A stretch of 64,000 bases of DNA. Origin: Deltaproteobacteria bacterium (GTDB lineage Bacteria; JAGRBM01; JAHCIT01). The stretch spans positions 64,235 to 128,234 of the forward strand of contig JAHCIT010000006.1 of the NCBI GenBank assembly GCA_026129095.1, in the 5' to 3' direction. Made by a program: the position numbers and the translations under genes. Shown piece after piece: positions 27,025 through 45,584 of the stretch (the first letter of the stretch is position 1; each line of letters opens with the position of its first letter). A model generated the notes under the pieces. The model searched no databases and was not told the DNA's origin. It worked only from the letters and a program-made list of their open reading frames with translations.

Positions 27025-27081
27025 CATGGTGCCCCCGGACGGAATCGAACCGTCACGGCCGTGAAGCCAGCGGTTTTTGAG
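27025..27081. repeat. 57-bp direct repeat of the 3' portion of tRNA-Leu(CAA); putative distal attachment site of the island
   Basis: The sequence atggtgcccccggacggaatcgaaccgtcacggccgtgaagccagcggtttttgag is identical to 55824-55880. Confidence 0.85.
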
Positions 27082-27891: not shown

Positions 27892-29025
27892 ATGACCGGC
27901 GGTTTTCTCCATCCGGCGGACCTCAAACGCCACCTGCTCAACCCCGACAAGTTCGTGCGGGAATGGGCCTCGATTTATTTCGGCAGTGCATTGATCCAAG
28001 ACACCGACCTGCCTGTTCTCATCATGGAGGCAGTCGAAAGATACGGCGAACTCAACAGTTTCTTCAGCTTGGCCAAACTGGATGTGTTCCCTCAGACGGA
28101 ACGGTCGGTTTCCATGATCCTCTCGCGGCTGGAAAAGGTCCGCCGGCAGGAAACCGCCGAATGCCTGAACCGGGCGCTCGCACTGATGCCGCTCGATCTC
28201 GTGCCGGTCTTCGAGAGCCGCATGAAAGCCGTCCCTGCCCTGCATCCAATGACTCATGAAAGGATCGCACGGCGGCGGGAATACAGATCCCGCAGGCCGC
28301 CGGAACTTTTCGACGAGCTTCTGTCGGTCTCGCTGAAATACGAAGGGAAACCCGTCCCGCCCCCCGAATTTGCCAGAACCGACGATCTGATTGAAGCGAT
28401 TGCCGCCCAGGACTGGCCGCCGTCCGGGAAACTGGTCGAGATGCTCCGGGAGCCGGATTACCAGGGGAGATGGGCCGAATACTTCATTGTGAAACTCTGC
28501 GGAACAGTCAGGAGCGAGCTGGCGGTGCCGCTCATCGTCGCGCAGCTGGCGTCAGATGATGATTTCCTTCCGGATGCCGCGCAGGAGAGCCTGTACCGGA
28601 TTGGGTATCCCGGAACTCCCGGCCTCATCCGGTCCCTCTGGCATAAACTTCCGGATGAACTCTCCCGTATGATGTCCGCATACACTTTCGCCGGTTTCAA
28701 ATCGCCCGCCTCGGCGGCAGCGGTCCTTGAACTGCTGGAACTGGAGGATGACCCCAGCCTGAGAACCATTCTGCTCGACTCGCTCGCCTATCTCGGTTCG
28801 GACAGGGCGGTGGCTATCGGTTGCGAGGAACTGGATGACCTTGACGAAGCCGTTACCGGAGACCTCATCCTGGCACTCTATGGAGCCGCAAAAATCCGCG
28901 GACTTGAAGTTCCCGAAGCGGCTGCATGGAAGAACGAACTGGAAGAGAACAACCGTCGCTTCAACAAGGAGGTGTTCGGCGTCGGCCCCGGTTCAGACCG
29001 GCCCCTGAGAAAACTGCCATTTTAG
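27892..29025 (+). CDS. Hypothetical alpha-helical (HEAT/ARM-like) repeat protein
   Basis: The 377-aa protein has a repetitive leucine-rich helical composition. No catalytic motif was recognised. Confidence 0.4.
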   Translation: MTGGFLHPADLKRHLLNPDKFVREWASIYFGSALIQDTDLPVLIMEAVERYGELNSFFSLAKLDVFPQTERSVSMILSRLEKVRRQETAECLNRALALMPLDLVPVFESRMKAVPALHPMTHERIARRREYRSRRPPELFDELLSVSLKYEGKPVPPPEFARTDDLIEAIAAQDWPPSGKLVEMLREPDYQGRWAEYFIVKLCGTVRSELAVPLIVAQLASDDDFLPDAAQESLYRIGYPGTPGLIRSLWHKLPDELSRMMSAYTFAGFKSPASAAAVLELLELEDDPSLRTILLDSLAYLGSDRAVAIGCEELDDLDEAVTGDLILALYGAAKIRGLEVPEAAAWKNELEENNRRFNKEVFGVGPGSDRPLRKLPF

Positions 29026-29111
29026 CGAAACCACAACGGCCGTTGTCTAATCAATATGGTATACAATTTAGATACGACATTTATAATTTGAGGTATAGCA
29101 ATACTTTTATC

Positions 29112-29139
29112 TTGACTCTTCCGTACCCATGCATATACT
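29112..29139 (+). promoter_or_regulatory. Sigma70-like promoter of the Type I RM operon (TTGACT-16-TATACT)
   Basis: It sits in an AT-rich 90-bp intergenic stretch at 29040-29130, with -35 at 29112-29117 and -10 at 29134-29139. Confidence 0.4.
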
Positions 29140-29191
29140 TGTGGCTATGGAAGCGTCACAACCCACCCATTTTCACCTCCAAAAAACGGCT

Positions 29192-29803
29192 AAAATGGCC
29201 GTTTGGCGGTCTTTGGGCGAGGTTGCCGAGATCATCGCCGGTCACCCGCTCTACCGGTTCGAGGGCGACACAGGACCTGCGATCCCGATTATCAATATCC
29301 GCGACCTGGAACACGCCGCCGATCTGACTCACTTCCTGGAAACGGCCGCCATCTCCGATCCGGCCAGATTCGGGCGTGCCCGGATTCTTCCCGACGATGT
29401 GATTGTGACGGCGAGAGGGACGCAGCTCCGGTCGGTTCTGGCCCCGGCCCGCTGGCAGGGCGCGGTCGCCTCATCGAACCTCATGCTCATCCGGCCGAAG
29501 CCGGAGATACTACTCCCGGAACTGCTGTCGGTATTTCTCCAGTCGCCCGCCGGGGTGAAAGCGTTCGAGCAGCGCCGGACCGGCACTCAGTTACTCAAGC
29601 TCACCCTTCGGGATCTGGCCGAAATCGAAGTGCCGGTGCCGCCGCTTTCCGAACAGCGCCAGCTCGCGGACCTGCTCCGCTCTGCCCAGGACTATTACGT
29701 CAACGCCCGCTACGCCGCCGAGATGCGTCTGATGGCGGCGCGCCAGATCGTGTCGGAACGGATTCTGCCCCCGCGCAAGCCCGCCACTGGAGACCCTGAA
29801 TGA
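29192..29803 (+). CDS. hsdS: Half-size Type I restriction-modification specificity subunit (single target-recognition domain HsdS); the ORF is listed from 29129 but the start at 29192 (MAVWRSLGEV) is likely
   Basis: The C-terminal conserved region VPVPPLSEQRQLADLL parallels the LPPLPEQKRIA and LPIPPIDEQRQI motifs of the full HsdS downstream. The stop overlaps the hsdM start. Confidence 0.6.
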   Translation, partial: KMAVWRSLGEVAEIIAGHPLYRFEGDTGPAIPIINIRDLEHAADLTHFLETAAISDPARFGRARILPDDVIVTARGTQLRSVLAPARWQGAVASSNLMLIRPKPEILLPELLSVFLQSPAGVKAFEQRRTGTQLLKLTLRDLAEIEVPVPPLSEQRQLADLLRSAQDYYVNARYAAEMRLMAARQIVSERILPPRKPATGDPE

Positions 29804-31302
29804 AAACCACCAGCACCAGCCAGCTCTTCGGCCACATCTGGAAAGCCGCCGACATCTTGCGCGGCTCCATCGACTCGTCCGACTACAAGGGGTTCATCTT
29901 CGCGATGATGTTCCTCAAGCGCGCCAACGACGTGTTCGAGGAAGAGGCCGAGAAAATTTTGAAGGAAACCGGCGACCGCAAGCTCGCCTACGAAGACGAG
30001 GACGAGCACCCGATCTTCGTGCCCAAGCGTGCGCGGTGGGAGGAACTCCGCAAGAAATCCACCCAGCTGGGCGACACCCTCAACAAGGCTTGCGAAGCGC
30101 TGGAACACTCCAATTCGACGCTTGAAGGCGTCCTTGCCGGCATCGACTTCAACGACGAGCACCGGCTGGGCGACGCCAAGCAGCGCGACATGCTGCTGGC
30201 GAAACTGATCCTTCATTTCTCGGAGATCAGCCTGCGGAACGCCGATCTGCCGGAGCCCGACGCGCTCGGCCGGGTCTATGAATACCTGATCGAGAAGTTC
30301 GCCGACGACGCCGGCAAGAAGGGCGGCGAGTTCTACACCCCGCGCGGCGTCGTCCAGCTTCTGGCGGAACTGCTCGAACCGAAAGAAGGGATGCGGATCT
30401 GCGACCCCACCTGCGGATCGGGCGGCATGCTGATCGAATGCGCGCACAAGATCGAGAATGACGGCGGCAACCCGCGCAACCTCTCCCTGTTCGGGCAGGA
30501 GAAGAACCTGGGCACCTGGGCCATCGCCAAGATGAACCTGCTCCTTCACGGGCTGCCGGACGCGCAGGTCGCCAAGGGGGACACGATCCGCGATCCCAAG
30601 TTCCTGGAAAAGGGCGAACTGATGCTGTTCGACCGGGTGATTGCCAATCCGCCGTTCAGCCTGGACGAATGGGGCCGCGATGCGGCCGAGGCCGACCGGT
30701 TCGGGCGCTTCAGGTTCGGCGTTCCGCCCGCCAGCAAGGGCGACCTAGCGTTCCTCCAGCACATGGTTGCGACGCTCAATGCCAAGGGCATGCTCGGCGT
30801 CGTCATGCCGCACGGCGTGCTGTTCCGGGGCGGTGCCGAAGGGAAGATCCGCGAAGGTCTCCTGAAGGAAGACCTGTTCGAGGCGGTGATCGGCCTGCCG
30901 GTGAACCTGTTCTACGGAACCGGGATTCCGGCGGCGATCCTGGTGCTGCGCCGGTCCGGAGCGAAACCGCCCGCCCGGCGCGGCAAGGTGCTGTTTATCA
31001 ACGCACCGGACGGATTCGAGAGCGCCCCGAACCAGAACAAGCTCCGGCCGCAGGATATCGAGCGGATCGCCAGGGCGTTCAAGGCCTTCAGGGACGAGGA
31101 GAACTTCGCCCGCGTCGTGCCGCTGAAAGAGATCGAGGACAACGGCTTCAACCTGAACATCTCCCGCTACGTGGAGATGGGCGGTGAAGATGCGATCCCC
31201 GACGTCCGCGAGGCGCTGAAAGCGCTCCGCGTCGCGGAAGCAAAGCGCGATGAGGCCGAGAAGCGCATGAACAGGATGCTCAGGGAACTCGGGTTCGAGT
31301 GA
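29800..31302 (+). CDS. hsdM: Type I restriction-modification N6-adenine DNA methyltransferase subunit
   Basis: The N-terminus SQLFGHIWKAADILRGSIDSSDYKGFIFAMMFLKR, the FYTPR motif, the SAM motif DPTCGSGGML and the NPPF motif (IANPPFS) are all present. Confidence 0.9.
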   Translation: MKTTSTSQLFGHIWKAADILRGSIDSSDYKGFIFAMMFLKRANDVFEEEAEKILKETGDRKLAYEDEDEHPIFVPKRARWEELRKKSTQLGDTLNKACEALEHSNSTLEGVLAGIDFNDEHRLGDAKQRDMLLAKLILHFSEISLRNADLPEPDALGRVYEYLIEKFADDAGKKGGEFYTPRGVVQLLAELLEPKEGMRICDPTCGSGGMLIECAHKIENDGGNPRNLSLFGQEKNLGTWAIAKMNLLLHGLPDAQVAKGDTIRDPKFLEKGELMLFDRVIANPPFSLDEWGRDAAEADRFGRFRFGVPPASKGDLAFLQHMVATLNAKGMLGVVMPHGVLFRGGAEGKIREGLLKEDLFEAVIGLPVNLFYGTGIPAAILVLRRSGAKPPARRGKVLFINAPDGFESAPNQNKLRPQDIERIARAFKAFRDEENFARVVPLKEIEDNGFNLNISRYVEMGGEDAIPDVREALKALRVAEAKRDEAEKRMNRMLRELGFE

Positions 31303-31853
31303 GCAGGGAGATGCAGGAATTCGCCATGTCGCGGCTTTGGGACCAACCGGGAGTGCCCCACAGGGGATGGAGGTGTATCGATGTCGTCGATAACCGGCCG
31401 GGTGACGTTGAGCCGGGCGAGGATGTCACCGAGGGCTATCCCACCTGCGAGATGTGCGGCCAGGAGCGGATACGGTTCGTGCATCTGATGGAGCATCCCG
31501 ATTTCCCGCAGCAACTGGACGTCGGCTGTGTCTGTGCGGAAAAGATGGAGGGCGACTACACCGGCCCGCGCCGGCGTGAGGCGACGCTCAAGAGCAAGGC
31601 CGCCCGCCGCGACAAATGGCTCACCCGGCGGTGGAACGAATCGGCGAAAGGGAACCCCTTCCTTCGCATTGAGGGCTTTGTCCTGACCGTATTCCGGGAT
31701 TCCCGCCGTCCCGGGCACTGGAAATGCAGCATTAAGGAACCCGGTGCCGAAGACCCGATCTTCGGCACCCAGTCCCATCCGTCCGAGGACGCCGCCAAGC
31801 TCGCCCTGTTCGAAAAGTTCTGGCACCTCCGGCAAAAAGGGACCGTCCAGTGA
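31299..31853 (+). CDS. Hypothetical Cys-rich (putative zinc-ribbon) protein embedded between hsdM and hsdS
   Basis: The 184-aa protein has the cysteine pattern WRCIDVV...YPTCEMCG...VGCVCAE. Its start and stop overlap the neighbouring genes by 4 nt each. Confidence 0.5.
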   Translation: MSREMQEFAMSRLWDQPGVPHRGWRCIDVVDNRPGDVEPGEDVTEGYPTCEMCGQERIRFVHLMEHPDFPQQLDVGCVCAEKMEGDYTGPRRREATLKSKAARRDKWLTRRWNESAKGNPFLRIEGFVLTVFRDSRRPGHWKCSIKEPGAEDPIFGTQSHPSEDAAKLALFEKFWHLRQKGTVQ

Positions 31854-33094
31854 CCAAGCCCCTTCCCAAAGGCTGGCGCCGCGTGCGGCTGGGCGAGTTT
31901 CTATCGCCGAGCAAGCTGCGCTTCGTTGTGCGCGACGACGTTACGTACACTCAAGTGACCGTAAGGATTCGCCATAAAGGCATCGTGGCAAGAGGTTACG
32001 AACAAGGTTCAAACATCAAGACGAAAAACCAGAATCAAATCAAAGCAGGGCAGTTTCTTATATCCAAGATCGACGCGCGTAACGGGGCCTGTGGTATTGT
32101 CCCACCAGAGCTTGATGATGCAGTAACGACTCACGACTTTCTTGCGTACGACGTCAATCCTGAAATTGTCGATCCGGGATTTTGGGACATCTATTCGTCG
32201 CTACCTTCGTTTGTCGAACTCTGTGCTTTGGCGAGTGAAGGGACAACGAATCGCGTTCGCCTGCGCCCCGATGAATTCCTGGACATGGAGATAGTGCTCC
32301 CTCCTCTCCCCGAGCAAAAACGGATCGCCGCCACCCTCCAGTCCGTCGACGCCGCCATCCGGGCCAACGAAGAGGTCATCGAAAAGACCCGCGACCTGAA
32401 AAAATCGCTCGCCAACGAGCTGCTGACCCGCGGTATCCCCGGCCGGCATAAGCGGTTCAAGGATTCCCCCATCGGCAAGATACCGGTGGACTGGGAGGTG
32501 AAGCGGCTGGGGGGCCTTCTTCTCCGGATCGAAGCAGGCAAAAGCCCCAAGTGTGAAGACCGTCCCGCCTCTCCAGAGGAATGGGGCGTGCTGAAAGTGA
32601 GCGCGGTAAGCTGGGGCACTTTTCATGCCCATGAGAATAAAGCGTTACTACCGTCGACATTGCCGTTCCCAGATTCTGAAGTTCAGGAGGGCGATCTTCT
32701 TCTTAGCAGAGCGAACACGCCGGATCTCGTTGGCCGTTGCGTAATCGTCGGGAAGGTGCGTCGACGCCTCCTGCTGTCTGACAAGACCCTTCGTCTTGTT
32801 CCCAATGATCGCCTCACCAGTAAACAGTTTCTAAATATCGCGTTGAATTCTCCCGATGCCAGAATACAGATTTCGTTAAATGCCACAGGCTCGTCACGCT
32901 CCATGAAGAATATTTCCCAAGAGACGCTACGGGATGTCGTCCTCCCTATACCGCCCATTGACGAACAGCGCCAGATCACTGAAGCGCTCGACACTACCGA
33001 TCCGCGAGATATCGAAGCGAAAACTGCCGTCCAGGAATATCGGAAAGTCGGTGCTTTACTACGGAGTTCTCTATTAGCGGGGATAAGTGTATGA
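31850..33094 (+). CDS. hsdS: Type I restriction-modification specificity subunit (two TRDs)
   Basis: The central and C-terminal conserved repeats are LPPLPEQKRIAATLQSVDAAI and LPIPPIDEQRQITEALDT. TRD1 (~31930-32300) is markedly AT-richer than the rest of the gene. Confidence 0.85.
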   Translation: MTKPLPKGWRRVRLGEFLSPSKLRFVVRDDVTYTQVTVRIRHKGIVARGYEQGSNIKTKNQNQIKAGQFLISKIDARNGACGIVPPELDDAVTTHDFLAYDVNPEIVDPGFWDIYSSLPSFVELCALASEGTTNRVRLRPDEFLDMEIVLPPLPEQKRIAATLQSVDAAIRANEEVIEKTRDLKKSLANELLTRGIPGRHKRFKDSPIGKIPVDWEVKRLGGLLLRIEAGKSPKCEDRPASPEEWGVLKVSAVSWGTFHAHENKALLPSTLPFPDSEVQEGDLLLSRANTPDLVGRCVIVGKVRRRLLLSDKTLRLVPNDRLTSKQFLNIALNSPDARIQISLNATGSSRSMKNISQETLRDVVLPIPPIDEQRQITEALDTTDPRDIEAKTAVQEYRKVGALLRSSLLAGISV

Positions 33095-33384
33095 ACTCAC
33101 TCATTACAGACGCCGTCCGCGAGCGCCGCGTCCTGACCTTCACCTATGATGGTTTTGAACGGCAGGTCGAGCCCTATACCTATGGAAAGCTGACGACCGG
33201 ATATGAAGGGTTGCGGGCGTTCCAGACCGGCGGCGGTTCGCGCTCCGGCAACCAGCCCATGTGGCGGCTGTTCCACGTCAACAGGATTCGCGGCCTCGCC
33301 CTGACCGAGGACCGGTTCACCAACCCAAGACCCGACTACAACCCCCAGGATTCCGACTTCCGGACCATCTGGGCGGGGGTGTGA
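33091..33384 (+). CDS. Small WYL-domain protein
   Basis: RVLTFTYDGFERQVEPYTYGKL...MWRLFHVNRIRGLALTEDRF matches the WYL-domain pattern (...Y....R.veP......WYL.a.....RtFRldRI). The ORF is 97 aa. Confidence 0.6.
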   Translation: MNSLITDAVRERRVLTFTYDGFERQVEPYTYGKLTTGYEGLRAFQTGGGSRSGNQPMWRLFHVNRIRGLALTEDRFTNPRPDYNPQDSDFRTIWAGV

Positions 33385-33387
33385 GCG

Positions 33388-34446
33388 ATGGCCAAGGGAA
33401 TAAATACTACGGGTGTACGGCTCCTTGATTACAAGGAAGTCCTGTCGTCACTCCCTGAAAAGAAGAAGCGCCACCTTCTCCTTGGGAACGGCTTCAGCCG
33501 CGCACTGCGCAACGACATTTTCTCTTACGATGCGTTGTTTGACCAGGCGGATTTCACGTCAATTGATCCCAGAATCAAGGATCTCTTCGGATCCCTTGGC
33601 ACCACCGATTTTGAAACTGTTATGCGCGTGCTTAGAGATGCATCGAACCTGATCAACGTATACTTGCCCAAAGATAAGTTGCTTGCGAATACCCTCATCG
33701 AACATTCCAATGCCTTAAAAGGCCTCTTGGCCAAAACTATTTCCGACAACCACCCCGCTCATCCAAACGAAATCAAGGAAGAGCAGTATCAGCATTGCCG
33801 CATTTTTCTGAATTCGTTCAAAGATGTTTATACGCTGAACTATGACCTTCTGCTTTATTGGACCCTCATGCACGAAGAGCTGGGAGATTCGCTTTCCAAT
33901 GATGACGGCTTCCGTACGCCAGATTCAGGTGAGCAGGAGTATGTCACCTGGGAAGTCGAGAATTCTAACAAGCAGACGGTTTTCTATCTCCATGGCGCGC
34001 TCCACTTGTTTGATGCTGGCGCTGAGCTCCAGAAATACACTTGGAAGAACACGCAGGTACGATTGATCAAGCAGATTCAAAACGCCCTCGAAGAAGACCG
34101 CTATCCACTAATCGTTGCTGAAGGAACCGCCGATGGAAAACGACGCCAGATCAAGCATAGCGGCTATTTAACGAGGGGTTTCCGCAGTCTTTCCAATATT
34201 GGCGAGACCATGATTATGTTTGGTGTTTCGTGTTCCAAACAGGATGAGCACATCCTCAAAGCGATAGAAAAGGGAAGTGGCAATGGCATCACCGATATAT
34301 ACGTAAGCATTTTCGGCGATCCCGATAGTGACGCCAATAAACGCATTATCCGCCGCGCCAAACAGATGGGAATCGCTCGGCCCAAATACCGAAAAGCATT
34401 GACCGTCTCCTTCTTTGACGCGTCAACCGCAAAGGTCTGGGGCTAA
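33388..34446 (+). CDS. SIR2-like (SIR2_2/DUF4917-type) protein
   Basis: LLLGNGFS, YTLNYDLLLYW and FYLHGALH correspond to the GAGxS, TTNYD and HLHG signatures of the SIR2-like family. The protein is 352 aa and the gene is noticeably lower in GC than its neighbours. Confidence 0.6.
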   Translation: MAKGINTTGVRLLDYKEVLSSLPEKKKRHLLLGNGFSRALRNDIFSYDALFDQADFTSIDPRIKDLFGSLGTTDFETVMRVLRDASNLINVYLPKDKLLANTLIEHSNALKGLLAKTISDNHPAHPNEIKEEQYQHCRIFLNSFKDVYTLNYDLLLYWTLMHEELGDSLSNDDGFRTPDSGEQEYVTWEVENSNKQTVFYLHGALHLFDAGAELQKYTWKNTQVRLIKQIQNALEEDRYPLIVAEGTADGKRRQIKHSGYLTRGFRSLSNIGETMIMFGVSCSKQDEHILKAIEKGSGNGITDIYVSIFGDPDSDANKRIIRRAKQMGIARPKYRKALTVSFFDASTAKVWG

Positions 34447-34448
34447 TC

Positions 34449-37400
34449 GTGAGCGATACTCTTTCTCGTCTAGACCAGCTTCGGGCCACCTGGCAGGCCC
34501 GGTTGCCGCTGTCGTCCGACGATCTCAGGCGGCTGCGCGAGCACTGGGAAATCGTTCACACCTACAACTCGAACGCGATCGAAGGGAATACGCTTACCCT
34601 CGGCGAGACCAAGGCGATCCTGATCGACGGGATCACCATCAGCGGCAAGCCGCTTCGGGAAATCCTCGAAGCCACCAATCACAAGTCGGCGATGGGGCTT
34701 CTCTACCGGCTGGCCGAGTCAAAGACGCCGCTGACGGAACCGGAAATCCTGGACCTTCACCGGCTGATCCTGAACGCGATCCGGCCCGACGACGCCGGGC
34801 GCTACCGCACAGATACGGTTCGGGTCGGTGGTTCCCGTCATGTATTTCCGAACCCGGCCAAGGTCCCGGACCTGATGGCGGAGTTTGTTGCCGGGATTGC
34901 GAAGGAAACTGGCCATCCGGTGAAAATCGCCGCCCGCGCCCACTTCCGGTTTGTCGCCATTCACCCGTTCGCCGACGGCAACGGACGTACAGCCCGTCTG
35001 CTGATGAACCTGCTGCTCATGAGGTCGGGCTATCCGCCTGCGTTCCTGCCGGTCGAACGGCGGGGCGAGTATTACGACCTGCTCGAAGAGTCTCATACAA
35101 AGGGGACGGGCCGCTTCGAATCATTCATCGCCGAATGCGTGGCGGAGTCTCTTGAAGATACGCTTGAGGGGTTGGGCGGAGTGGATGCGGCTCCGGCGGC
35201 TCCTGCCGCCGCTCCGGCAACAAAGACCAGACCGGCGGGCACGGCCGGGCGCTCGTCCCGGTGGAACGAGGAAGACCTCTCGGAGGGACCGGCCGTGGCC
35301 TTGCTGGAAAAGCTGGGCTGGACATTCATCGAGAGCGAACGCCTGAATTCCGACCGGGATACGAACCGGGACGCGATTCTGGCCAGACGGCTGGAGAAGG
35401 CGCTCCGGAGGCTGAACCCGTGGCTGTCGGACGACAATCTCCACCGGGCCGTCCGCTCGGTCACGCATATCCCCGCCACGGGCCTGATCGAGGCGAACGA
35501 GCGGGTTCACCGGACCCTCGTGCATACGCTGTCGCTGGAACAGGACCTGAACGACGGACGCGGGAAGATCGGCCGCGACGTCCATTTCATCGACTTCGCC
35601 AATTCGCGGAATAACGAGTTCGTCGTCACCCGGCAGTTCGATGTCCAGGGGGCCAATCAGCGGCGGATCTTCGATGCCGTCTGCTTCGTGAACGGTCTCC
35701 CGCTGGCGATCATCGAGTGCAAGTCGCCCACGCTCGGCGAAAAGTGGTTCGAGGAGGCGATGAAATCCCTGAACCTCTATCAGGAGGCGAAGGACGAATA
35801 CGCCGGTCAGGGCGTCCCGAAGGCGTTCGAAGCGACACAGGTGGTCGCCGCGCTTGCGGGCTCGTCCGGGGCAAAACTCGCCACCGTGCTGACTCCGGAC
35901 CGGCATTATGCCGAGTGGCGGGAGCCGTTCCCACTATCGCGGGAGGCCGTCGCTGGTCTCGTCGGCCGCGAGGTGACGCCACAGGATCTTCTGATCGCGA
36001 GCGCCCTTTCGCCGGAAAGCCTGCTCGACCTCGTTTCGAACTTCGTCGTTTTTGAACCCGAAGGGGCGAGGCGCGTCAAGAAACTCGCCAAGTACCAGCA
36101 GTTCATCGCCGTGAACCGGGCGCTAGACCGCATCAGAACCGCTCCTGACCCGGCGGCCCGTGGCGGCATAGTCTGGCACACCCAGGGCTCGGGCAAATCG
36201 CTCACGATGCTCTGGCTGGCGGTGAAACTGCGCCGGCTGGCGGCTCTGGAGAACCCGTCCATTGTGATCGTCACGGACCGTACGGATCTCGACACCCAGA
36301 TCAGCGAGACCTTTGAGCGGTGCGGCTTCCCGAATCCCCAGCAGGCGAAAAGCGTCCGGCATCTGGCCGAACTACTCGGGGCCGGATCGGGCCTCACGAT
36401 CACGACAACGATCCAGAAGTTTCAGGGCGTGTCCGGCGGCAAGCAGACGGCCCTGAACGAGGCGTCGAACCTGTTTGTCCTTGTCGATGAGGCGCACCGG
36501 ACCCAGTACAAATCGCTCGCGGCCCGCATGCGTCAGGCCCTTCCGAATGCCTGCTTCCTGGGTTTTACCGGAACGCCGATCGACAAGAACGACCGTTCCA
36601 CCCCGAAGGTTTTCGGCCCCTACATCCATACCTATCCGATCCAGCAGGCGGTGGAAGACGGCGCGACGGTTCCCATTTATTACGAAGGCCGTCTGACCGA
36701 GCTTCACGTCGAAGGCTCGTCGCTCGATGCGGTATTTGGCCGGGTGTTCGCGGACAAGTCGGATGATGAAAAGGCGGCCATCCGCAAGAAGTTCGTCACC
36801 TACGAGGCGGTCGCCGGGGCTCCGAGCCGGATCACGCGAATCTGCACGGACCTCGTCGACCATTTCGAGAAGTTCATCCGGCCGAACGGATTCAAGGCGC
36901 AGGTTGTCGCCTGCACGCGGGACGCCGCCGTCACCTACCTTGAAACGCTGGAACGGCTGGGAGCACCCGAGTGCGCGCTCATCATGTCCGGCACCCATAC
37001 GGATGAGGACCGGCTCGCACGGCATCACAAGTCCAGGGAACAGCAGAAGGAGCTGATCGCCCGGTTTATCAACAAGGACGATCCGCTTTCAATTTTAGTC
37101 GTCTGCGACATGCTGCTGACCGGCTTCGATGCGCCGGTCGAACAGGTGATGTATCTGGACAGCCCCCTCAAAGAGCACAATCTTCTCCAGGCAATCGCCC
37201 GCGTGAACCGCACGGCCGAAGGCAAGACTTACGGTCTTGTGGTGGACTACTGGGGCATCTCCGATGAACTCCAGGACGCGCTGGCCGTTTTCGATCCCAA
37301 AGACATTCAGGGCGCGCTGGTGGAGATTTCCAGCGAGCTGCCGAGGCTGGAGAACCGGCACCGGCAGGTCATGGACCTGTTCAGGAAGGTGGACCGCAAA

Positions 37401-38258
37401 GACCCGGAAGCCTGTCTCCGGATTCTGGAGCCTGAAGACCGGCGGGCCGAGTTCGAAGCGAAGTTCCGCAAGTTCGCCCAGAGCATGGACATGGTTCTGC
37501 CCGATCCCGCCGCCCTGAAGTTCCAGAAAGACCTGACCTGGCTTGGCAAACTCCGCGTCATGGCCCGTGCGCGGTTCCGCGATGATAGCCTCGATCTCTC
37601 CGGCTGCGGCGCAAAGGTCAAAAAACTCATTGAGGAATACGTACGAGCTGACGAGGTTGTCCAACTCACGGAGCCGGTTTCGATCTTCTCGAAGCGGTTC
37701 GATGAAGAAGTGGACAAGCTCAAGTCTCCGGAGGCGAAAGCCAGCGAGATGGAACACGCCGTCAAGCACGAGATCAGTGTCAAGATCTCCGAAGACCCCG
37801 TGTTCTACCAGAAACTCTCGGAACGTCTGGAGGAGATTATCCGTGACCGCAGGGAGCATCGTATCCAGGCGGCAGAGGCGATCAAGCGGCTGCAACTGGT
37901 CCTCGACGAACTCCGTGGCCGTCATCAGCAAGCGAACTCTTTGGGCCTAAGTGATGAGGAACTAGCGTTTTTCAACGCGATCCAGGCGCCGGGGAGTTCC
38001 AATACGCTCAAGGAGGAACCCGCTCCATATGGGAATGCTCACTCTCCCCAAGAGCAGGAACGGGCGAAACTCGCCGCGGAAGTTTTCGCCATGCTTAAAG
38101 AACTCGCCGTCATTGACTGGGTCCGCAAAGAGGATGTCCAGAGGGAAATGCGCCGTCAGGTCAAGCGGCGACTCCGCTTCGCTGGGTTCGGCGATGATGA
38201 GACAGAAAAACTGACCACCTCGCTGATGGATCTCGCCAGAGCACGGCTCGCGAAGTGA
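34449..38258 (+). CDS. hsdR: Type I restriction enzyme R subunit (HsdR) with an N-terminal Fic (AMPylase-type) domain fusion
   Basis: The HsdR part has the Walker A motif HTQGSGKS, the DEAH box LVDEAHR, an HsdR N-terminal region (ALLEKLGWTFIE) and a C-terminal helicase domain. The first ~230 aa contain the Fic motif HPFADGNGRTARLLMNLLL, joined by an Ala/Pro-rich linker. The total is 1269 aa with a GTG start. Confidence 0.85.
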   Translation: MSDTLSRLDQLRATWQARLPLSSDDLRRLREHWEIVHTYNSNAIEGNTLTLGETKAILIDGITISGKPLREILEATNHKSAMGLLYRLAESKTPLTEPEILDLHRLILNAIRPDDAGRYRTDTVRVGGSRHVFPNPAKVPDLMAEFVAGIAKETGHPVKIAARAHFRFVAIHPFADGNGRTARLLMNLLLMRSGYPPAFLPVERRGEYYDLLEESHTKGTGRFESFIAECVAESLEDTLEGLGGVDAAPAAPAAAPATKTRPAGTAGRSSRWNEEDLSEGPAVALLEKLGWTFIESERLNSDRDTNRDAILARRLEKALRRLNPWLSDDNLHRAVRSVTHIPATGLIEANERVHRTLVHTLSLEQDLNDGRGKIGRDVHFIDFANSRNNEFVVTRQFDVQGANQRRIFDAVCFVNGLPLAIIECKSPTLGEKWFEEAMKSLNLYQEAKDEYAGQGVPKAFEATQVVAALAGSSGAKLATVLTPDRHYAEWREPFPLSREAVAGLVGREVTPQDLLIASALSPESLLDLVSNFVVFEPEGARRVKKLAKYQQFIAVNRALDRIRTAPDPAARGGIVWHTQGSGKSLTMLWLAVKLRRLAALENPSIVIVTDRTDLDTQISETFERCGFPNPQQAKSVRHLAELLGAGSGLTITTTIQKFQGVSGGKQTALNEASNLFVLVDEAHRTQYKSLAARMRQALPNACFLGFTGTPIDKNDRSTPKVFGPYIHTYPIQQAVEDGATVPIYYEGRLTELHVEGSSLDAVFGRVFADKSDDEKAAIRKKFVTYEAVAGAPSRITRICTDLVDHFEKFIRPNGFKAQVVACTRDAAVTYLETLERLGAPECALIMSGTHTDEDRLARHHKSREQQKELIARFINKDDPLSILVVCDMLLTGFDAPVEQVMYLDSPLKEHNLLQAIARVNRTAEGKTYGLVVDYWGISDELQDALAVFDPKDIQGALVEISSELPRLENRHRQVMDLFRKVDRKDPEACLRILEPEDRRAEFEAKFRKFAQSMDMVLPDPAALKFQKDLTWLGKLRVMARARFRDDSLDLSGCGAKVKKLIEEYVRADEVVQLTEPVSIFSKRFDEEVDKLKSPEAKASEMEHAVKHEISVKISEDPVFYQKLSERLEEIIRDRREHRIQAAEAIKRLQLVLDELRGRHQQANSLGLSDEELAFFNAIQAPGSSNTLKEEPAPYGNAHSPQEQERAKLAAEVFAMLKELAVIDWVRKEDVQREMRRQVKRRLRFAGFGDDETEKLTTSLMDLARARLAK

Positions 38259-38261
38259 TCC

Positions 38262-38990
38262 ATGGTACTTCGTTCCTTCCAGTTCGGTAACACCCGAATC
38301 AGCTACCGGACGATCCGCTCCAGCCGGCGGACCACAATAGGCATTGCTGTAAAACCAGACGGGAAAGTTGTGGCTTCGGTGCCACAGGGCATAACGGTTT
38401 CCAAAGTGGACCGGGCCATTCGGTCCAAAGCCCGTTGGATCTACCAGAAGCAGCTTGAGGCGCGGGAGTTACAGTCCCAGCAGCCTTCCGGCAGGGAATT
38501 CGTTGACGGCGAGACGTTCAAATATCTGGGCCGGGGGTACCGGTTGCGGATTTCAGTGGGTCACCAGTCCGAGGTTCGTCTGATGAATGGCCGCTTAAGA
38601 GTCATCGTGGCAAACAAGCCCGCGAGTGGGCGCAAGCCTGAGCTGGTCCGTTCCGCCCTGATAGAATGGTATCGACAGCATGCGATCCAGCGTCTCGCCG
38701 AACGAATGGATTACTGGTCCAGAAGGATGGGGATATCACGTCCCAGAATGTTGCTGGGAGACCAGAATCGCCGCTGGGGGAGTTGTAGCGCGAAAGGCGA
38801 AGTCCGGATCAACTGGCGGATTATTCAGGCCCCCATGAGGATCGTAGACTATGTGATTGTCCACGAACTGGTCCATCTGATCCATCCGGATCACTCAAGG
38901 GCATACTGGAAAGCGCTTCATCGTGTCTTGCCGGATGCGCCTCAACGAAAATCCCGCCTGTATCTCATCGGCCCCGAGCTGATGTGGTGA
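38262..38990 (+). CDS. YgjP-like (DUF45/WLM-type) zinc metallopeptidase associated with Type I RM
   Basis: The HEXXH motif is in IVHELVHLIHPDHS, and RWGSCSAKGEVRINWRI is typical of DUF45. The gene starts 4 nt after the hsdR stop. Confidence 0.75.
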   Translation: MVLRSFQFGNTRISYRTIRSSRRTTIGIAVKPDGKVVASVPQGITVSKVDRAIRSKARWIYQKQLEARELQSQQPSGREFVDGETFKYLGRGYRLRISVGHQSEVRLMNGRLRVIVANKPASGRKPELVRSALIEWYRQHAIQRLAERMDYWSRRMGISRPRMLLGDQNRRWGSCSAKGEVRINWRIIQAPMRIVDYVIVHELVHLIHPDHSRAYWKALHRVLPDAPQRKSRLYLIGPELMW

Positions 38991-39016: not shown

Positions 39017-39469
39017 TCAGTCGTCTTCGAGCATGCCGAACTCGTCCATCTCTTTCATCCATGAATACAATGACCGGCGCACCGGCAGGCAGGCATCTTT
39101 CCGGACCACAAAATCGGCAATGTCCATGTAGCGAATCCGTGGCAGCTTTGCCGCGGGAATACCCGCGTTGTCCCGGCAGTTTCCGGTCAGTTCCACTTCA
39201 TGAATTGCCAGGGTGATGCTGCCGGTGAATGCCGGCGGCGACATCACCAGAAGTGATTTTTCCGACACCGGTAATCCTGTCTGCCTGAGAAAACTGGATT
39301 CAATTTCCTCCGGTACATCTTCGAAGGCCATCGTCACCCCTCCGGGCAGATCCCAGACCGCTCCGGTCTTCACGACGAGAATCTGACAGTCGTCGGTCAT
39401 GAGTAGACCGCGAGCATGGATTTCTGGGGGCTTCCCCGTTATAGGATTTCGGGCGGTTGGTGGGTTCAT
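39017..39469 (-). CDS. Nudix-fold-like protein with a degenerate Nudix box
   Basis: WDLPGGVTMAFEDVPEEIESSFLRQTG aligns to Gx5Ex7REUxEExGU, but the REx2EE catalytic residues are replaced by SSx2RQ. Confidence 0.35.
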   Translation of the reverse strand: MNPPTARNPITGKPPEIHARGLLMTDDCQILVVKTGAVWDLPGGVTMAFEDVPEEIESSFLRQTGLPVSEKSLLVMSPPAFTGSITLAIHEVELTGNCRDNAGIPAAKLPRIRYMDIADFVVRKDACLPVRRSLYSWMKEMDEFGMLEDD

Positions 39470-39475
39470 GACAGA

Positions 39476-41203
39476 TCAACGAACGCCATAAACCGTCAGA
39501 TTCGCGACCCACGCTTCGCCGGCCGAACCCATGCCCTGTGTCAAACCCCCAAGGAACTGCATCCAGCCCCCCGCGAACTGGCCGTACGGAGACGGCGGGA
39601 CGAACATGGAGGGACCGTCACCGGGCCAGCGGTCACGTCTTCCGGAAAAAACCTCGGAACTAGGCCCCATGCATACATTGACCCAGGTGTTCGTGGGCCA
39701 GCTCCAATGCGGTCCGAAAGCATCCAAGTAGTTCGCCCCCGGCGAACCGGTGGTCTGAAACCAGTCGATTCCAACCCGCGGCAATACGCCTGAACTCGAA
39801 GGTACCCAGACGGATGCACAAATCATCACCGGAGTGCCCCGCTGGAGTGCCGGCTTTGCCTCCGCGACGGCGACGCCGACGTCCGTTCCGGTGACGACCG
39901 TCAGCTTCACGGCGCCAATCGTCGTATCCAAGGATTTTGAGCAGACGTTGTATCTCGGCACGAAATTCACCGGATCATCGACGGTTTCGCAGTAAAATTT
40001 CGTAAAACCGTCGCGTTTGGCGCACCACGACGAGACCACTGACGTTCCTGCCGGGGGATTGGGAAAACTGTTGCAATCAGGCGCGGCCGGAGGGGTTGAG
40101 GGGACCGTTACCGTAATATTTATGAATGCAGGTGCGGCGGAATCCACGGCGTTCGAGCAGTCGAGCCGGTAGGTCGTCGAGACCAGCGGTGTGACAACCG
40201 TATTACCACCGATGGGAGTAACGGAGCCGATACCGGTAATTGTGCAATTCGTCGCGTTGTTGACGGTCCACGTCAGCGTCACCGGCTGGCCGGAAATCAC
40301 CGACACCGGATTCGCCGCAAACAGTACGATCTCAACCTGCGGGACGGGCGGCGGCGGGGCGGGCGTCACGGTGACGGTCACGCTCCGTGTGGCCGGGCTG
40401 CCCGCCCCGTTGCAGTTCAGCGCATAGATCGTCGGTGCGGTGGGCGTGACGGTTTTGCTCCCGCTCGGGATGGTGACGCTGCCGACGCCGTTATCGATGC
40501 TGCAAGCGGTGGCGTTCGTCACGCCGGACCACGCGAGCGTTGCCGTGCTGCCCGCCGTGATCGTCGCCGGCGAGGCCGTGAAAGTGCCGATACCGACTGG
40601 CGGCGGCGGGGCGGGCGTCACATTGATGGTGATGCTCTGGCTTGCGCTGTAACTGTCGTTCCGGCAGGTGACGAGGTGGGTGCTTCGAAGGAATACGGGG
40701 GAAATCGGGTACGACCAAACCGGTTCGTACTCAACCTCGTGATTGTCCAGCGTGCAGTAATCGGCATTCATCGCAGACCAGTACAGCGTAACGGTTCCAC
40801 CTTCAGGGACCGGATTGGGTGAAGCATATGCATAATTAAATGTAACCGGCTCTGGCGCGGGCGGATCCGGCCGACGTTCAACAGTGACTTCCGCCTGGGT
40901 GCTTCCGGCGACGTTCGAACAGGCGAGTAGGTAGGTGACGGGAGGGTAAATCTGCACAACGATACTGTCCGACTCCGGACCGACTTCGGTACCGTTCAGC
41001 ACGCAGCTATGTGCGTGCTCTACATTCCATGTGATGGTGGTCGCCTCTCCGGGTGAGACCTTATCGGGGGTTGCGGTGAGGCTGCCGATTACGGGGGGCT
41101 TTTCCTGTACACAGCCGGGCTGGAGTACCCAAAAGAGCATCAGCATGGCGGTTCTGGCGGCGGATTTCATATCAAATCTCCTCGGATGGGGCGAAGCCTT
41201 CAC
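39476..41203 (-). CDS. Secreted/lipoprotein with tandem Ig/FN3-like beta domains separated by Pro-rich linkers
   Basis: The N-terminal signal MKSAARTAMLMLFWVLQPGC and the repeated TVTVTPAPPPPV linkers are present. A Cys-containing C-terminal domain follows. The ORF is 575 aa. Confidence 0.55.
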   Translation of the reverse strand: MKASPHPRRFDMKSAARTAMLMLFWVLQPGCVQEKPPVIGSLTATPDKVSPGEATTITWNVEHAHSCVLNGTEVGPESDSIVVQIYPPVTYLLACSNVAGSTQAEVTVERRPDPPAPEPVTFNYAYASPNPVPEGGTVTLYWSAMNADYCTLDNHEVEYEPVWSYPISPVFLRSTHLVTCRNDSYSASQSITINVTPAPPPPVGIGTFTASPATITAGSTATLAWSGVTNATACSIDNGVGSVTIPSGSKTVTPTAPTIYALNCNGAGSPATRSVTVTVTPAPPPPVPQVEIVLFAANPVSVISGQPVTLTWTVNNATNCTITGIGSVTPIGGNTVVTPLVSTTYRLDCSNAVDSAAPAFINITVTVPSTPPAAPDCNSFPNPPAGTSVVSSWCAKRDGFTKFYCETVDDPVNFVPRYNVCSKSLDTTIGAVKLTVVTGTDVGVAVAEAKPALQRGTPVMICASVWVPSSSGVLPRVGIDWFQTTGSPGANYLDAFGPHWSWPTNTWVNVCMGPSSEVFSGRRDRWPGDGPSMFVPPSPYGQFAGGWMQFLGGLTQGMGSAGEAWVANLTVYGVR

Positions 41204-44617: not shown

Positions 44618-45584
44618 CTCCGGGAACGATTAAGACTTCATTTAGTGTTGCGTTGCTCCAAACTGGCTTCGCCAAAAGACTAAAACCTTTAGGAGGGAGA
44701 GAATTGACGATCCTGAATCTGACTGCCATATTATCCTTTTCAGACTTTTCAAATACCTCTAATTTGAGAGTGGTATTGGGGTTGAAACGTAATATTATAA
44801 CTCCCTCCCTGACCCCTCTAGGTCTTTTGTGAATAGCCCTATCCTCCCCCATCTGAATTTGGGCTTCATGGCGTATGGAGGGGGGAAATAAATTAGGATG
44901 CACATAGGTGCACTCTTTGAAAGCTGACGGTTCGGCGAGATCGTCTTGCGGGTCGTCTTCTTCTGCGTCCGCCATATCCGGATTGGTAGCCGCCTCCATT
45001 ATTTCCTGTATCGCTTTCCGGATCCGGTTGTCGATCTCGATGGATCCGGGGACATCCAGAGGAAGCAGTCGTGCGAGGCTTTGGTTTACTCGGGTTGTTT
45101 CGGCTGCACCCCCCAGAATGCAATTTTCCTGCAAGTCGACGTATTCAACCAGGGCGCGGGAAACCTGGGCGTAATCTTCCGGGGTGACTTCACCGATTAC
45201 CGATACGCCGGAGTTCCCGGTGAGTGCGCGATGCGGTACCGTGACGGTCAGATTGACCTTGGCATGGAAGTCTTCGTGGATTGCCGGATACAGGGGAGCG
45301 ATGGCCGCAGGGTTCCCCGTTACCAGCGGGACGATCTGCGGGGGAGGGTGTTGGGTATCAACCGGCATGCCGTAGTCCGCGCCCGTGATCAGGAAGCAGC
45401 AGCTGCCGGATTCCGCTGGACTGTCTCCGCCGCAAACAATGACGGAACCGTGCGCAAGCCCGCCAGCGGTTTCATCCGTAGTAGTCATTGCCTTCTCCAG
45501 ACGAGTGAGCATATTTTTTGCGTTGAACTTATCGAGTAATTGGTTCTCTTCAGCTTTTGAATATCCGGTACTCATTTGGTACAT
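44508..45584 (-). CDS. Hypothetical protein
   Basis: A 358-aa ORF between the ECF sigma gene and the CHAT gene on the same strand, with overlapping junctions. No motif was recognised. Confidence 0.5.
   Translation of the reverse strand: MYQMSTGYSKAEENQLLDKFNAKNMLTRLEKAMTTTDETAGGLAHGSVIVCGGDSPAESGSCCFLITGADYGMPVDTQHPPPQIVPLVTGNPAAIAPLYPAIHEDFHAKVNLTVTVPHRALTGNSGVSVIGEVTPEDYAQVSRALVEYVDLQENCILGGAAETTRVNQSLARLLPLDVPGSIEIDNRIRKAIQEIMEAATNPDMADAEEDDPQDDLAEPSAFKECTYVHPNLFPPSIRHEAQIQMGEDRAIHKRPRGVREGVIILRFNPNTTLKLEVFEKSEKDNMAVRFRIVNSLPPKGFSLLAKPVWSNATLNEVLIVPGDESTTSVIFQDKPTSKMRRNIKWLFRLQKAEDTNGA

Follow-up and report, generated by a model that had tools for sequence, protein, structure and literature searches.

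A probably mobile Type I restriction-modification operon with candidate defence cassettes between its standard genes and a Fic domain fused to HsdR

Background

The closest described counterparts of the operon reported here are Type I restriction-modification (RM) operons that carry additional genes. In the EPEC locus rptR-hsdM-hsdS-darTG-hsdR-M48 the genes share one promoter and the system protects against phage (Zhang et al., NAR 2025, PMC12255303); its authors regard the site between hsdS and hsdR as a likely recombination hotspot for defence genes (PMC12255303). PrrC occupies a slot in a Type I RM operon, where it is silenced by EcoprrI and activated by the T4 inhibitor of EcoprrI (PMC1484252), and prrC is rarely found anywhere but inside a Type I RM system (bioRxiv 10.1101/2024.01.29.577857). 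Embedded genes share the orientation of the host system in 96.7% of cases (Payne et al., bioRxiv 10.1101/2024.01.29.577857), and the models PDC-S21 and PDC-S04, which like PDC-S05 represent candidates and not validated defences, were built from genes nested within Type I RM, BREX or DISARM systems (bioRxiv 10.1101/2024.01.29.577857).

The present operon is located in a 64,000-nt window, the whole stretch of DNA that was analysed (Deltaproteobacteria bacterium contig JAHCIT010000006.1, GCA_026129095.1, positions 64,235-128,234). In our view the locus is probably a Type I RM operon that moves horizontally and hosts promoter-less candidate defence cassettes between its standard genes.

Operon layout and integrative island

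An ORF scan of the window revealed eight plus-strand ORFs from 29129 to 38990, almost without non-coding DNA, encoding in order a half-size HsdS, HsdM, a 184-aa Cys-rich protein, HsdS, a WYL protein, a DUF4917/SIR2-like protein, a Fic-HsdR fusion and a YgjP-like protein. The initial annotation had proposed these genes in this order, and all eight labels proved right, on a single strand. Foreign genes sit in two fixed gaps, slot A (between hsdM and hsdS) and slot B (between hsdS and hsdR); in a third capture, a FICD-like Fic AMP-transferase has been joined covalently to HsdR through a flexible linker.

29129-29803, plus strand: half-size HsdS (backbone); one Methylase_S domain (2e-11), PADLOC Specificity_I, one conserved helix
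29800-31302, plus strand: HsdM N6-adenine methyltransferase (backbone); HsdM_N and N6_Mtase (4e-101)
31299-31853, plus strand: slot A zinc-motif protein, 184 aa, Cys-rich; CxxC...H..H...CxC
31850-33094, plus strand: full-length HsdS with two target-recognition domains (backbone); Methylase_S in two stretches, PADLOC Specificity_I (9e-48)
33091-33384, plus strand: solo WYL domain protein, 97 aa; semi-conserved, left edge of slot B
33388-34446, plus strand: DUF4917/SIR2-like protein (slot B cargo); DUF4917 (1.3e-79), PADLOC candidate PDC-S21 (7e-121)
34449-35252, plus strand: FICD-like class II Fic domain and linker, N-terminus of HsdR; Fic (1.9e-25), PDC-S04 (7e-35)
35253-38258, plus strand: HsdR restriction/translocase body (backbone); TIGR00348 hsdR (7e-154), HSDR_N, SWI2_SNF2, T1RH-like_C
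38262-38990, plus strand: YgjP-like (DUF45) zinc metallopeptidase (last backbone gene); PF01863 (5e-56)

The junctions, from 5' to 3', measure -4, -4, -4, -4, +3, +2 and +3 nt; the earlier claim that every gene overlaps the next by about 4 nt therefore holds for four of the seven, the remaining three being spacers of 2-3 nt. A caution that such overlaps might be artefacts of start choice bears on two doubtful start codons, those of the half-size hsdS and of the Cys-rich gene; the junction of the latter with hsdM would become +23 nt. The longest gap inside the operon is accordingly 3 nt, rising to 23 nt if the alternative start is used. Tight junctions are a trait of the family, independent of cargo, in the five comparison loci (L001, L007, L008, L009 and L011). 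The extra genes lie between hsdM and hsdS and between hsdS and hsdR, all on the plus strand, and are thus embedded in the sense of Payne et al. A motif scan found the catalytic motifs intact in all proteins checked.

The operon is part of a 28.8-kb integrase island at a tRNA-Leu gene, with attL at the far end:

27026-27081, strand not applicable: attL, a 56-bp exact direct repeat of the tRNA-Leu 3' half, identical to 55825-55880
54612-56387, plus strand: tyrosine integrase ORF adjoining attR; Phage_integrase (3e-18) at residues 186-331
55826-55912, minus strand: tRNA-Leu(CAA), by ARAGORN and Rfam RF00005 (52.6 bits); the repeat in its 3' half, 55825-55880, is attR

The G+C content is 56.3% inside the island compared with 62.8% and 64.1% outside, so that all the marks of a tRNA-integrated island are present: an integrase beside the tRNA, a repeat at the far border and deviant composition.

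Restriction-modification backbone

Five genes are kept among the relatives and form the backbone: those for the half-size HsdS, HsdM, HsdS, HsdR and the YgjP-like peptidase. Their sequences have the features of a Type I RM system, namely the HsdM motifs, a two-domain HsdS, and an HsdR with nuclease and SF2 translocase. HsdM retains motifs I (DPTCGSG, residue 202) and IV (NPPF, residue 283); the PADLOC Specificity_I models align over residues 5-382 of the 414-aa HsdS; and HsdR scores 514 bits against TIGR00348 (cut-off 285), with the nuclease residues D...ECK, the Walker A motif GSGKS and the DEAH box intact. These proteins would assemble into a methylase (M2S) and a restriction enzyme (R2M2S). 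The YgjP-like gene follows hsdR in every related locus; its product scores 190 bits against PF01863 (cut-off 26) and carries HELVH, an HExxH zinc site, at residue 201.

Homologues of the half-size HsdS head the operon in L001 (85%), L007 (34%), L008 (37%) and L011 (42%). Its true start is probably ATG 29147 or 29195, the codon equivalent to the latter being ACG in L001. Such a half-size subunit would probably dimerise and provide a second, symmetric specificity. The second half of the full-length HsdS (GC3 of 0.445) has been swapped relative to L001, DNA homology stopping at 32460. A phase-variable hsdS shufflon was considered and rejected: both hsdS genes are in direct orientation and long inverted repeats linking them are absent. 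They have in common only a 48-nt direct match of 71% identity in the conserved helix, and the island integrase, at a distance of 16 kb, is the sole recombinase.

Passenger genes and their exchange

The initial annotation had treated the Cys-rich ORF, the WYL gene and the SIR2-like gene as passengers, and the relatives agree, in that these positions vary among them and the backbone genes are kept. L011 is a bare backbone with empty slots and no Fic domain. L001 has the same slot A gene as here, with two ThsB-like TIR proteins and a 204-aa gene in slot B. L007 carries ORF6N (PDC-S05) in slot A and DUF6119 in slot B. Slot A is empty in L008 and L009, slot B being filled by a 203-aa gene of unknown family in the former and by a WYL gene plus a PDC-M14B-like gene in the latter. 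The embedded genes thus behave as variable cargo, absent or replaced among the five related host systems. DNA identity to L001 is 91% over 29089-32460, 84% over 33271-33385 and 87% from 34464 onwards, and exactly 33386-34463, the slot B cassette, is replaced in L001. Homologous recombination between related operons would be able to exchange cassettes by way of the conserved flanks, namely the 3' end of hsdS/WYL and the 5' end of hsdR.

The slot A protein matches no Pfam family and has 154 homologues, none of them with a Pfam domain; its Cys and His residues are invariant. Judged by where the family starts, its own likely start is ATG 31326, giving 175 aa. PADLOC holds no dedicated model for it, and a fold search with its AF2 model (pLDDT 92.6) gave no informative match. 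Its homologues occur in many non-RM contexts, and one of 11 sampled contexts (Rheinheimera) does not resemble a defence region.

In slot B, the WYL protein contains neither an HTH/wHTH DNA-binding domain nor a WCX domain, and in PADLOC it matched only generic CRISPR-associated WYL models, there being no dedicated one. A regulator of the BrxR/CapW/PafBC type was rejected, as the wHTH + WYL + WCX architecture is absent. Nor does the gene belong to a WYL-SIR2 module, because its G+C is like that of the backbone and it is found again in L009 beside another partner.

The DUF4917 protein matches PF16263 over model positions 1-311 of 311 (268 bits, cut-off 28) and carries the motifs GNGFS (residue 33), NYD (151) and HG (202); its score against PF13289 SIR2_2, 22.6 bits, falls just under the Pfam cut-off of 24.5. 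Sequence comparison detected no relative with a solved structure. We surmise that it is probably an NAD+-consuming or deacylating SIR2 effector. SliP of C. jejuni, the only studied DUF4917 protein, is reported to be a secreted deacetylase and not a phage defence (PMC10421069). The G+C content of the gene, 48.5% compared with about 62% for the backbone, marks it as a recent import. On Methylobacter and Rhizobium plasmids, homologues are immediate neighbours of other Type I RM operons, and in Leptospira they stand alone among toxin-antitoxin genes.

The Fic-HsdR protein is 1269 aa long, with Fic at residues 1-242 and an Ala/Pro-rich linker at 243-268. The Fic part (PF02661, 90 bits) has the active-site motif HPFADGNGRTAR at 172-183 (HxFx(D/E)GNGRxxR class) and the inhibitory motif SNAIEG at 41-46 ((S/T)xxxE(G/N) class), and is about 45% identical to human FICD over 220 residues (phmmer, 1.3e-45). 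Since the inhibitory glutamate motif is retained, the domain may be inactive or may act as a de-AMPylase like FICD. Among 1.84 billion representatives at 50% identity, a single one covers the junction of Fic and HsdR. The domain is missing from the closest non-fused HsdR relatives (64-69% identity) and from L011, and its closest stand-alone relatives are not in hsd loci. The count of three embedded passengers given previously is consequently too low: judged by this distribution, Fic is a fourth, fused to HsdR.

Transcription

A candidate promoter precedes the operon:

29112-29139, plus strand: sigma-70-like promoter candidate; TTGACT, 16 nt, TATACT; consensus scan, 10/12 positions

The match proposed earlier does exist, it sits in the sole AT-rich gap (29026-29128, 36% GC), and both hexamers are kept in the 91%-identical relative L001 as TTGATT/TATACT; matches of this kind are nevertheless at shuffle level, three being found where 3.6 are expected in shuffled sequence, without enrichment. 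Its -10 hexamer is 29134-29139, and ATG 29129 of the half-size HsdS falls within the candidate. With ATG 29147 lying 7 nt past the -10, a leaderless start is possible.

That internal promoters or terminators might split the operon had been named as a reason to doubt the single transcript, and a scan of the sequence gave no sign of them beyond chance. Terminator-like matches are at chance level (15 against 12.2 +/- 3.3 expected), the two on the plus strand being weak and within genes, and no plus-strand promoter-like site was found in 29140-38990 by the consensus scan, which is insensitive and limited to sigma-70-type sites and leaves room for promoters inside coding sequence. Such promoters, for instance within DUF4917 or hsdS, which are richer in AT, might drive hsdR or the cargo separately, so that compact genes would form several transcription units and the overlaps would reflect genome compaction and start-codon choice without obligatory coupling. 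Classical Type I systems do transcribe hsdR separately, and hsdR of classical EcoKI has its own promoter; moreover, two overlaps hinge on doubtful starts and three junctions are spacers. Several units are nonetheless unlikely in our judgement, given the absence of plus-strand promoter-like matches from 29140-38990, gaps of at most 3 nt (23 nt with the alternative start), packing that five relatives share although their cargo differs, and an EPEC analogue that is driven from one upstream promoter region. All junctions are too short to hold a promoter or terminator. Most likely, then, the passengers are transcribed along with the RM genes from the one promoter region upstream, and they would be translated alongside these by coupling or re-initiation.

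Role of the passengers

The RM system would act as the first barrier, with the passengers probably serving as independent second-line effectors (an NAD+-consuming or deacylating SIR2, an AMPylating Fic). Gene packing, motifs and guilt-by-embedding render the "one transcript", "NADase" and "layered defence" of the initial annotation plausible. Alternatively, at least one of DUF4917, the HsdR-tethered Fic and the zinc-motif protein could be held latent by the RM complex and fire when a phage anti-restriction protein disables it, leading to cell death or arrest. PrrC, silenced by EcoprrI and released by the T4 inhibitor (PMC1484252) and almost only embedded in Type I RM, is the precedent, and an autoinhibited Fic tethered covalently to HsdR is the wiring that this arrangement predicts; the tight co-translation suggested by the junctions would favour co-assembly. 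We give it a low probability, however, since DUF4917 homologues also stand alone or, at other RM loci, beyond the borders of the operon, zinc-motif homologues turn up in many non-RM settings, the nearest stand-alone Fic domains are not in hsd loci, and the free exchange of slot B cargo speaks against co-evolved contacts with the RM proteins, Fic possibly excepted.

Lower still do we place the reading in which the extra genes tune RM itself and do not attack phage: Fic would (de)AMPylate HsdR or HsdM and YgjP would proteolyse HsdR, bringing about restriction alleviation, WYL would sense single-stranded DNA or damage, and the zinc-motif protein would be a controller-type DNA-binding protein. FICD-type enzymes are indeed reversible modifiers, DriD and CapW recognise single-stranded DNA as a signal through their WYL domains (PDB 7tzv and 9c5g descriptions), and the YgjP-like protein and Fic-HsdR can be counted as constant partners of the backbone (Fic being absent in L011). 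Yet the WYL protein, having no HTH, fails the BrxR/CapW architecture; the backbone exists without the zinc-motif and DUF4917 genes in L008, L009 and L011, and both occur away from RM systems; DUF4917 has effector-type SIR2 motifs, and the cargo of the relatives includes the classic effector domains TIR and ORF6N. More speculative again, and in our opinion a long shot, is a built-in switch, in which the FICD-like Fic stays autoinhibited while R2M2S is intact or idle and, once the complex stalls or is blocked by a phage anti-restriction protein, is set free and AMPylates, or de-AMPylates, a target of the host or the phage. The guard principle of PrrC would here take covalent form, and the co-translated slot cargo (SIR2-like, WYL and zinc-motif proteins) could plug into the same trigger. 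Independent second-line effectors are the reading that we retain.

Comparison with known systems

The locus had been described as considerably more elaborate than a canonical hsdRMS; this does not stand against published Type I RM operons with embedded same-orientation genes, a trailing metallopeptidase and one upstream promoter (PMC12255303; bioRxiv 10.1101/2024.01.29.577857; PMC1484252). Both this locus and the EPEC island are Type I RM operons that begin with a small gene, have a zinc metallopeptidase gene behind hsdR and one promoter region upstream (here a candidate), and are carried on horizontally acquired DNA. The leading gene, however, is a half-size hsdS here and the repressor RptR in EPEC, and the cargo is a solo WYL plus DUF4917 instead of DarTG2; the second slot (hsdM|hsdS) is also filled here and HsdR has a fused Fic.

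As in PrrC/EcoprrI, accessory genes are nested in a Type I RM operon, co-expression having been shown there while we infer it here. The present cargo families also live outside RM loci, unlike prrC, which is almost always embedded. A PrrC-type guard anticodon nuclease (ABC-ATPase + anticodon-nuclease) was rejected, none of the eight proteins matching a PrrC model in PADLOC or Pfam.

Among the individual proteins, DUF4917 resembles ThsA (Thoeris) and DSR in its Rossmann-type GxGxS, NYD and HG motifs, which characterise NAD+-using enzymes of the SIR2-like kind, but has neither SLOG or another sensor domain nor a partner gene; SliP, of the same Pfam family, is described as a secreted deacetylase and not as an NADase. 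The 97-aa WYL protein differs from BrxR, CapW, DriD and PafBC in having no winged-helix and WCX domains, and hence cannot act as those repressors do. Fic shares with FICD/HYPE the catalytic HPFxDGNGRxxR and N-terminal inhibitory (S/T)xxxE(G/N) motifs, but in place of a TPR/membrane anchor has a Type I restriction subunit as its fusion partner, and differs from PDC-S04 in being a domain of HsdR and not a separate embedded gene. Given the match to these published cases, the layout is a variant of architectures already described (PrrC/EcoprrI, EPEC RptR-RMS-DarTG-M48 and guilt-by-embedding), the rare part being the Fic domain fused to the restriction enzyme.

Gene content and organization

Eight consecutive plus-strand ORFs were identified within 29129-38990, in the order given in the initial annotation, and profile searches bore out all of its gene labels.

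Genes of the operon (window coordinates)
29129-29803 (+), half-size HsdS, single Methylase_S domain
29800-31302 (+), HsdM, N6_Mtase 4e-101
31299-31853 (+), Cys-rich 184-aa ORF (zinc-motif protein), no family match
31850-33094 (+), full HsdS, Methylase_S in two stretches
33091-33384 (+), WYL-like ORF of 97 aa, weak WYL match
33388-34446 (+), DUF4917/SIR2_2 protein, 1.3e-79
34449-38258 (+), Fic-HsdR fusion of 1269 aa, Fic and HsdR domains
38262-38990 (+), YgjP-like metallopeptidase, 5e-56

The distances between successive genes are -4, -4, -4, -4, +3, +2 and +3 nt. Overlaps of about 4 nt, initially claimed for every junction, are thus found at four of the seven (ATGA/GTGA overlaps), the remaining three being spacers of 2-3 nt. 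More than 99% of the 9.86-kb span is coding, whichever start codons apply. The annotated starts of the Cys-rich gene and the half-HsdS are doubtful. The Cys-rich protein's homologues start at the codon corresponding to ATG 31326, as does the gene called in the closest relative; this start would place the hsdM junction at +23 nt. For the half-HsdS, ATG 29129 falls within the proposed promoter, and ATG 29195 reads ACG in L001, a related locus on a metagenome contig; ATG 29147, 7 nt 3′ of the -10 hexamer, could be a leaderless start.

The promoter proposed at 29112-29139 does match the pattern (10/12 positions), but such patterns are no more frequent than in shuffled sequence. The candidate is supported by its position in the sole AT-rich gap (36% GC) and by the retention of both hexamers in L001. 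A promoter pattern scan revealed no plus-strand sites inside the operon, and terminator-like matches did not exceed the chance level. The stop of ygjP is just 26 nt from that of the convergent gene, and no plus-strand terminator-like site was found between them. Since homology to L001 begins at 29089, just 5′ of the promoter-like site, and the genes upstream differ, promoter and operon appear to travel as one unit. Inside the island described below, the 5′ neighbour (27892-29025, +) encodes a 377-aa HEAT-repeat protein; the convergent 3′ neighbours (39017-41203, -) encode a 150-aa protein and a Thr/Pro-rich one of 575 aa, both lacking a family match.

Catalytic signatures are intact in all the proteins checked: HsdM (DPTCGSG, NPPF), HsdR (nuclease D...ECK, GSGKS, DEAH), the Fic domain (HPFADGNGRTAR, with the inhibitory SNAIEG at its N-terminal side), DUF4917 (GNGFS, NYD, HG) and YgjP (HELVH). 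Exact-sequence look-ups of three proteins from the window (DUF4917, the Cys-rich one and WYL) returned no record.

A five-gene backbone with two cargo slots

Passenger variability, which the initial annotation had left to comparative genomics, is evident among the related loci: the cargo differs at two positions, one between hsdM and hsdS (slot A) and one between hsdS and hsdR (slot B), and a backbone of five genes is kept. PADLOC assignments are included for cargo in the relatives.

Cargo slots in the operon and its relatives
L011, Pyrinomonadaceae MAG: slot A empty; slot B empty; HsdR without Fic
L008, Chrysiogenetes MAG: slot A empty; slot B 203-aa unknown gene; HsdR Fic-fused
L007, NCBI assembly GCA_040960215: slot A ORF6N (PDC-S05); slot B DUF6119; HsdR Fic-fused
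L001, metagenome contig: slot A same zinc-motif gene; slot B WYL remnant, two ThsB-like TIR proteins and a 204-aa gene; HsdR Fic-fused
L009, metagenome contig: slot A empty; slot B 87%-identical WYL and a PDC-M14B-like gene; HsdR Fic-fused
Window: slot A zinc-motif protein; slot B solo WYL and DUF4917; HsdR Fic-fused

The genome scan with HsdM recovered nine loci only, among them the bare backbone of L011 (half-HsdS, HsdM, HsdS, HsdR, YgjP and nothing more) and two, L012 and L017, without the half-HsdS. Relatives of the operon are found across several phyla, and close junctions are retained in all of them irrespective of cargo. At the protein level, L001 shares 96% identity with the window in HsdM and 94% in Fic-HsdR, and L009 95% in Fic-HsdR. 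The YgjP-like gene is mosaic, in contrast with Fic-HsdR at 94-95% in both contigs: window 38262-38990 shares 51% identity with L001 11666-12394 and 85% with L009 7027-7761. Two more ORFs lie 3′ of ygjP in L001, the first of which (101 aa) overlaps it by 4 nt.

Alignment with L001 DNA locates the cassette edges. Identity is 91% over 29089-32460, is interrupted by a divergent second target-recognition domain of hsdS, and resumes at 84% over the 3′ end of the WYL gene (33271-33385); exactly 33386-34463 is unrelated, and from 34464 on identity is 87%. Three additional matches to 31443-31547 were traced to other loci in the comparison set and are not repeats. Base composition agrees with these edges, DUF4917 having 48.5% GC versus approximately 62% for the backbone, WYL, Fic and zinc-motif genes. 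The second target-recognition half of hsdS (32461-33094) has a GC3 of 0.445 versus 0.64 in the first half which, together with the break in homology to L001 at this point, indicates a recent swap of the specificity domain, distinct from the cargo swap. A phase-variable hsdS shufflon was considered and rejected, because neither inverted repeats nor an adjacent recombinase is present. Near-identical backbones (87-95% identity) thus carry different cargo, whose edges are resolved to a few bases, and constitute a natural experiment in the exchange and expression of embedded cassettes lacking promoters of their own.

The integrative island

A 56-bp exact direct repeat (27026-27081 and 55825-55880) duplicates the 3′ half of a tRNA-Leu gene.

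Features at the island boundary
55826-55912 (-), tRNA-Leu(CAA)
54612-56387 (+), tyrosine integrase ORF, beside the tRNA-Leu

The 28.8 kb between the repeats, which include the whole hsd operon, have 56.3% GC versus 63-64% outside. From the repeats, tRNA, integrase and deviant composition we conclude that the operon is cargo of an integrative island. Past its catalytic domain (residues 186-331), the integrase reading frame continues for some 260 codons, across the opposite-strand tRNA. Either the integration junction created a long, unrelated tail, or the extension is an artefact of ORF calling in GC-rich DNA. Rfam revealed no RNA elements inside the operon, and the full window gave no match at gathering thresholds, whereas in a local scan the tRNA-Leu reached 52.6 bits, with the cut-off at 29; the gene was evidently missed by the fast filters, and the absence of Rfam matches on the full window is therefore unreliable.

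PADLOC identified no other known defence systems in the rest of the island. GC falls to 42-48% over 42-47 kb. This stretch carries a minus-strand run of ORFs (41660-46731), matched by no PADLOC model and led by a 985-aa CHAT-domain (caspase-like) protein; the other ORFs are of 358, 216 and 170 aa, with a weak HTH match in the 216-aa protein. The run could represent a further module with an accessory or defence role.

The passenger proteins

The Fic domain, the nearest match of which is human FICD (phmmer 1.3e-45), also matches the PADLOC PDC-S04/SoFic-like models. It is joined to a complete HsdR by an Ala/Pro-rich linker (residues 243-268). The fusion is rare: among 1.84 billion clusters at 50% identity, only one representative spans both halves of the junction query, and the homologue search yielded four further proteins with Fic and HsdR, distant and longer. 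A metagenome scan with the Fic-linker-HsdR N-terminus revealed stand-alone Fic genes only, which share 30-49% identity and lie outside hsd loci, and a literature search turned up no paper describing such a fusion. The Fic domain is best read as a one-time slot B passenger now fused to HsdR.

DUF4917 matches the PADLOC candidate PDC-S21 (7e-121). Homologues lie immediately 3′ of hsdM-PDDEXK-hsdS-hsdR on a Methylobacter plasmid, immediately 5′ of hsdM-hsdS-FRG-hsdR on Rhizobium pRL11, and solitary amid toxin-antitoxin genes on Leptospira plasmids. None of these has a WYL neighbour, which gives DUF4917 the look of a stand-alone module of one gene. WYL as its sensor partner was rejected on the same ground and because WYL recurs with other cargo. 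The solo WYL family comprises just four clusters in a word-index search; one homologue (53% identity; L020, 3753-4031), on a prophage-like Oxalobacter contig, is divergent from DnaT/RusA/terminase genes.

The zinc-motif family has 154 matches at E <= 1e-3 and no model in Pfam, PADLOC, NCBIfam or PHROG. Invariant Cys and His residues form the pattern CxxC...H..H...CxC; the structure model is confident (pLDDT 92.6) and bears no convincing resemblance to entries in PDB or BFVD. Members occur on four phages and on 44 plasmids, of which 32 are conjugative. In four of the 11 sampled contexts (L047, L048, L053, L055) the gene lies beside a Gabija-like OLD-ATPase/UvrD pair, in L053 on the same strand and immediately 3′ of it; from its neighbours, the family may be an unrecognised accessory of Gabija-like systems. 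Elsewhere it adjoins BREX, lies amid toxin-antitoxin genes, follows an ImmA/IrrE peptidase or adjoins a prophage integrase; one sampled context has no defence-like appearance. A role in plasmid leading-region anti-restriction, considered because of the conjugative plasmids, was rejected because, in the plasmids sampled, the gene lies in defence clusters rather than transfer-origin regions. The operon draws attention to this family as widespread, confidently folded and unannotated; the recurrence of its members by Gabija-like pairs, BREX, prophage integrases and toxin-antitoxin clusters makes it a reasonable new candidate for defence or for defence regulation.

Proposed function and comparison with known systems

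The RM backbone most likely methylates and restricts DNA. The half-HsdS would probably add a symmetric specificity, since truncated HsdS subunits are known to function as dimers, as in the engineered EcoR124I-NT (PMC3320862). The promoter-less cargo is most likely transcribed and translated together with the RM genes, its products most likely acting as independent second-line effectors. This reading draws on the gene packing, the variability of the slots, the effector-type motifs and a published precedent, the RRDM island of EPEC.

Three other explanations were weighed against it. Transcription of the eight genes in separate units is improbable; the three spacer junctions speak for it, and against it the pattern scan detected no plus-strand promoter-like site within the operon. 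A PrrC-like coupling, with the passengers guarding the RM complex, seems unlikely to about the same degree: the slot B cargo changes on a constant backbone. The covalent Fic-HsdR fusion provides a tractable test of whether embedded effectors are wired to the restriction complex. Less likely still is that the passengers regulate the RM system itself; L011 keeps the backbone with no passenger at all. Co-expressed second-line cargo is the favoured reading.

The EPEC RRDM island shares the layout of the operon: its cargo sits between hsdS and hsdR, and an M48 peptidase trails. It has a single upstream promoter and confers phage protection (PMC12255303). Payne et al. carried out a systematic survey of genes nested within Type I RM, BREX or DISARM, from which PDC-S21 and PDC-S04 originate (bioRxiv 10.1101/2024.01.29.577857). 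In view of that survey the kind of system is already known and, as Type I RM operons are well established as hosts of nested defence genes, the general picture is unchanged by this locus. New here are the covalent Fic-HsdR fusion, the conserved half-HsdS in the lead position, the occupation of both slots at once, and two passengers that lack annotation (the solo WYL domain and the zinc-motif protein).
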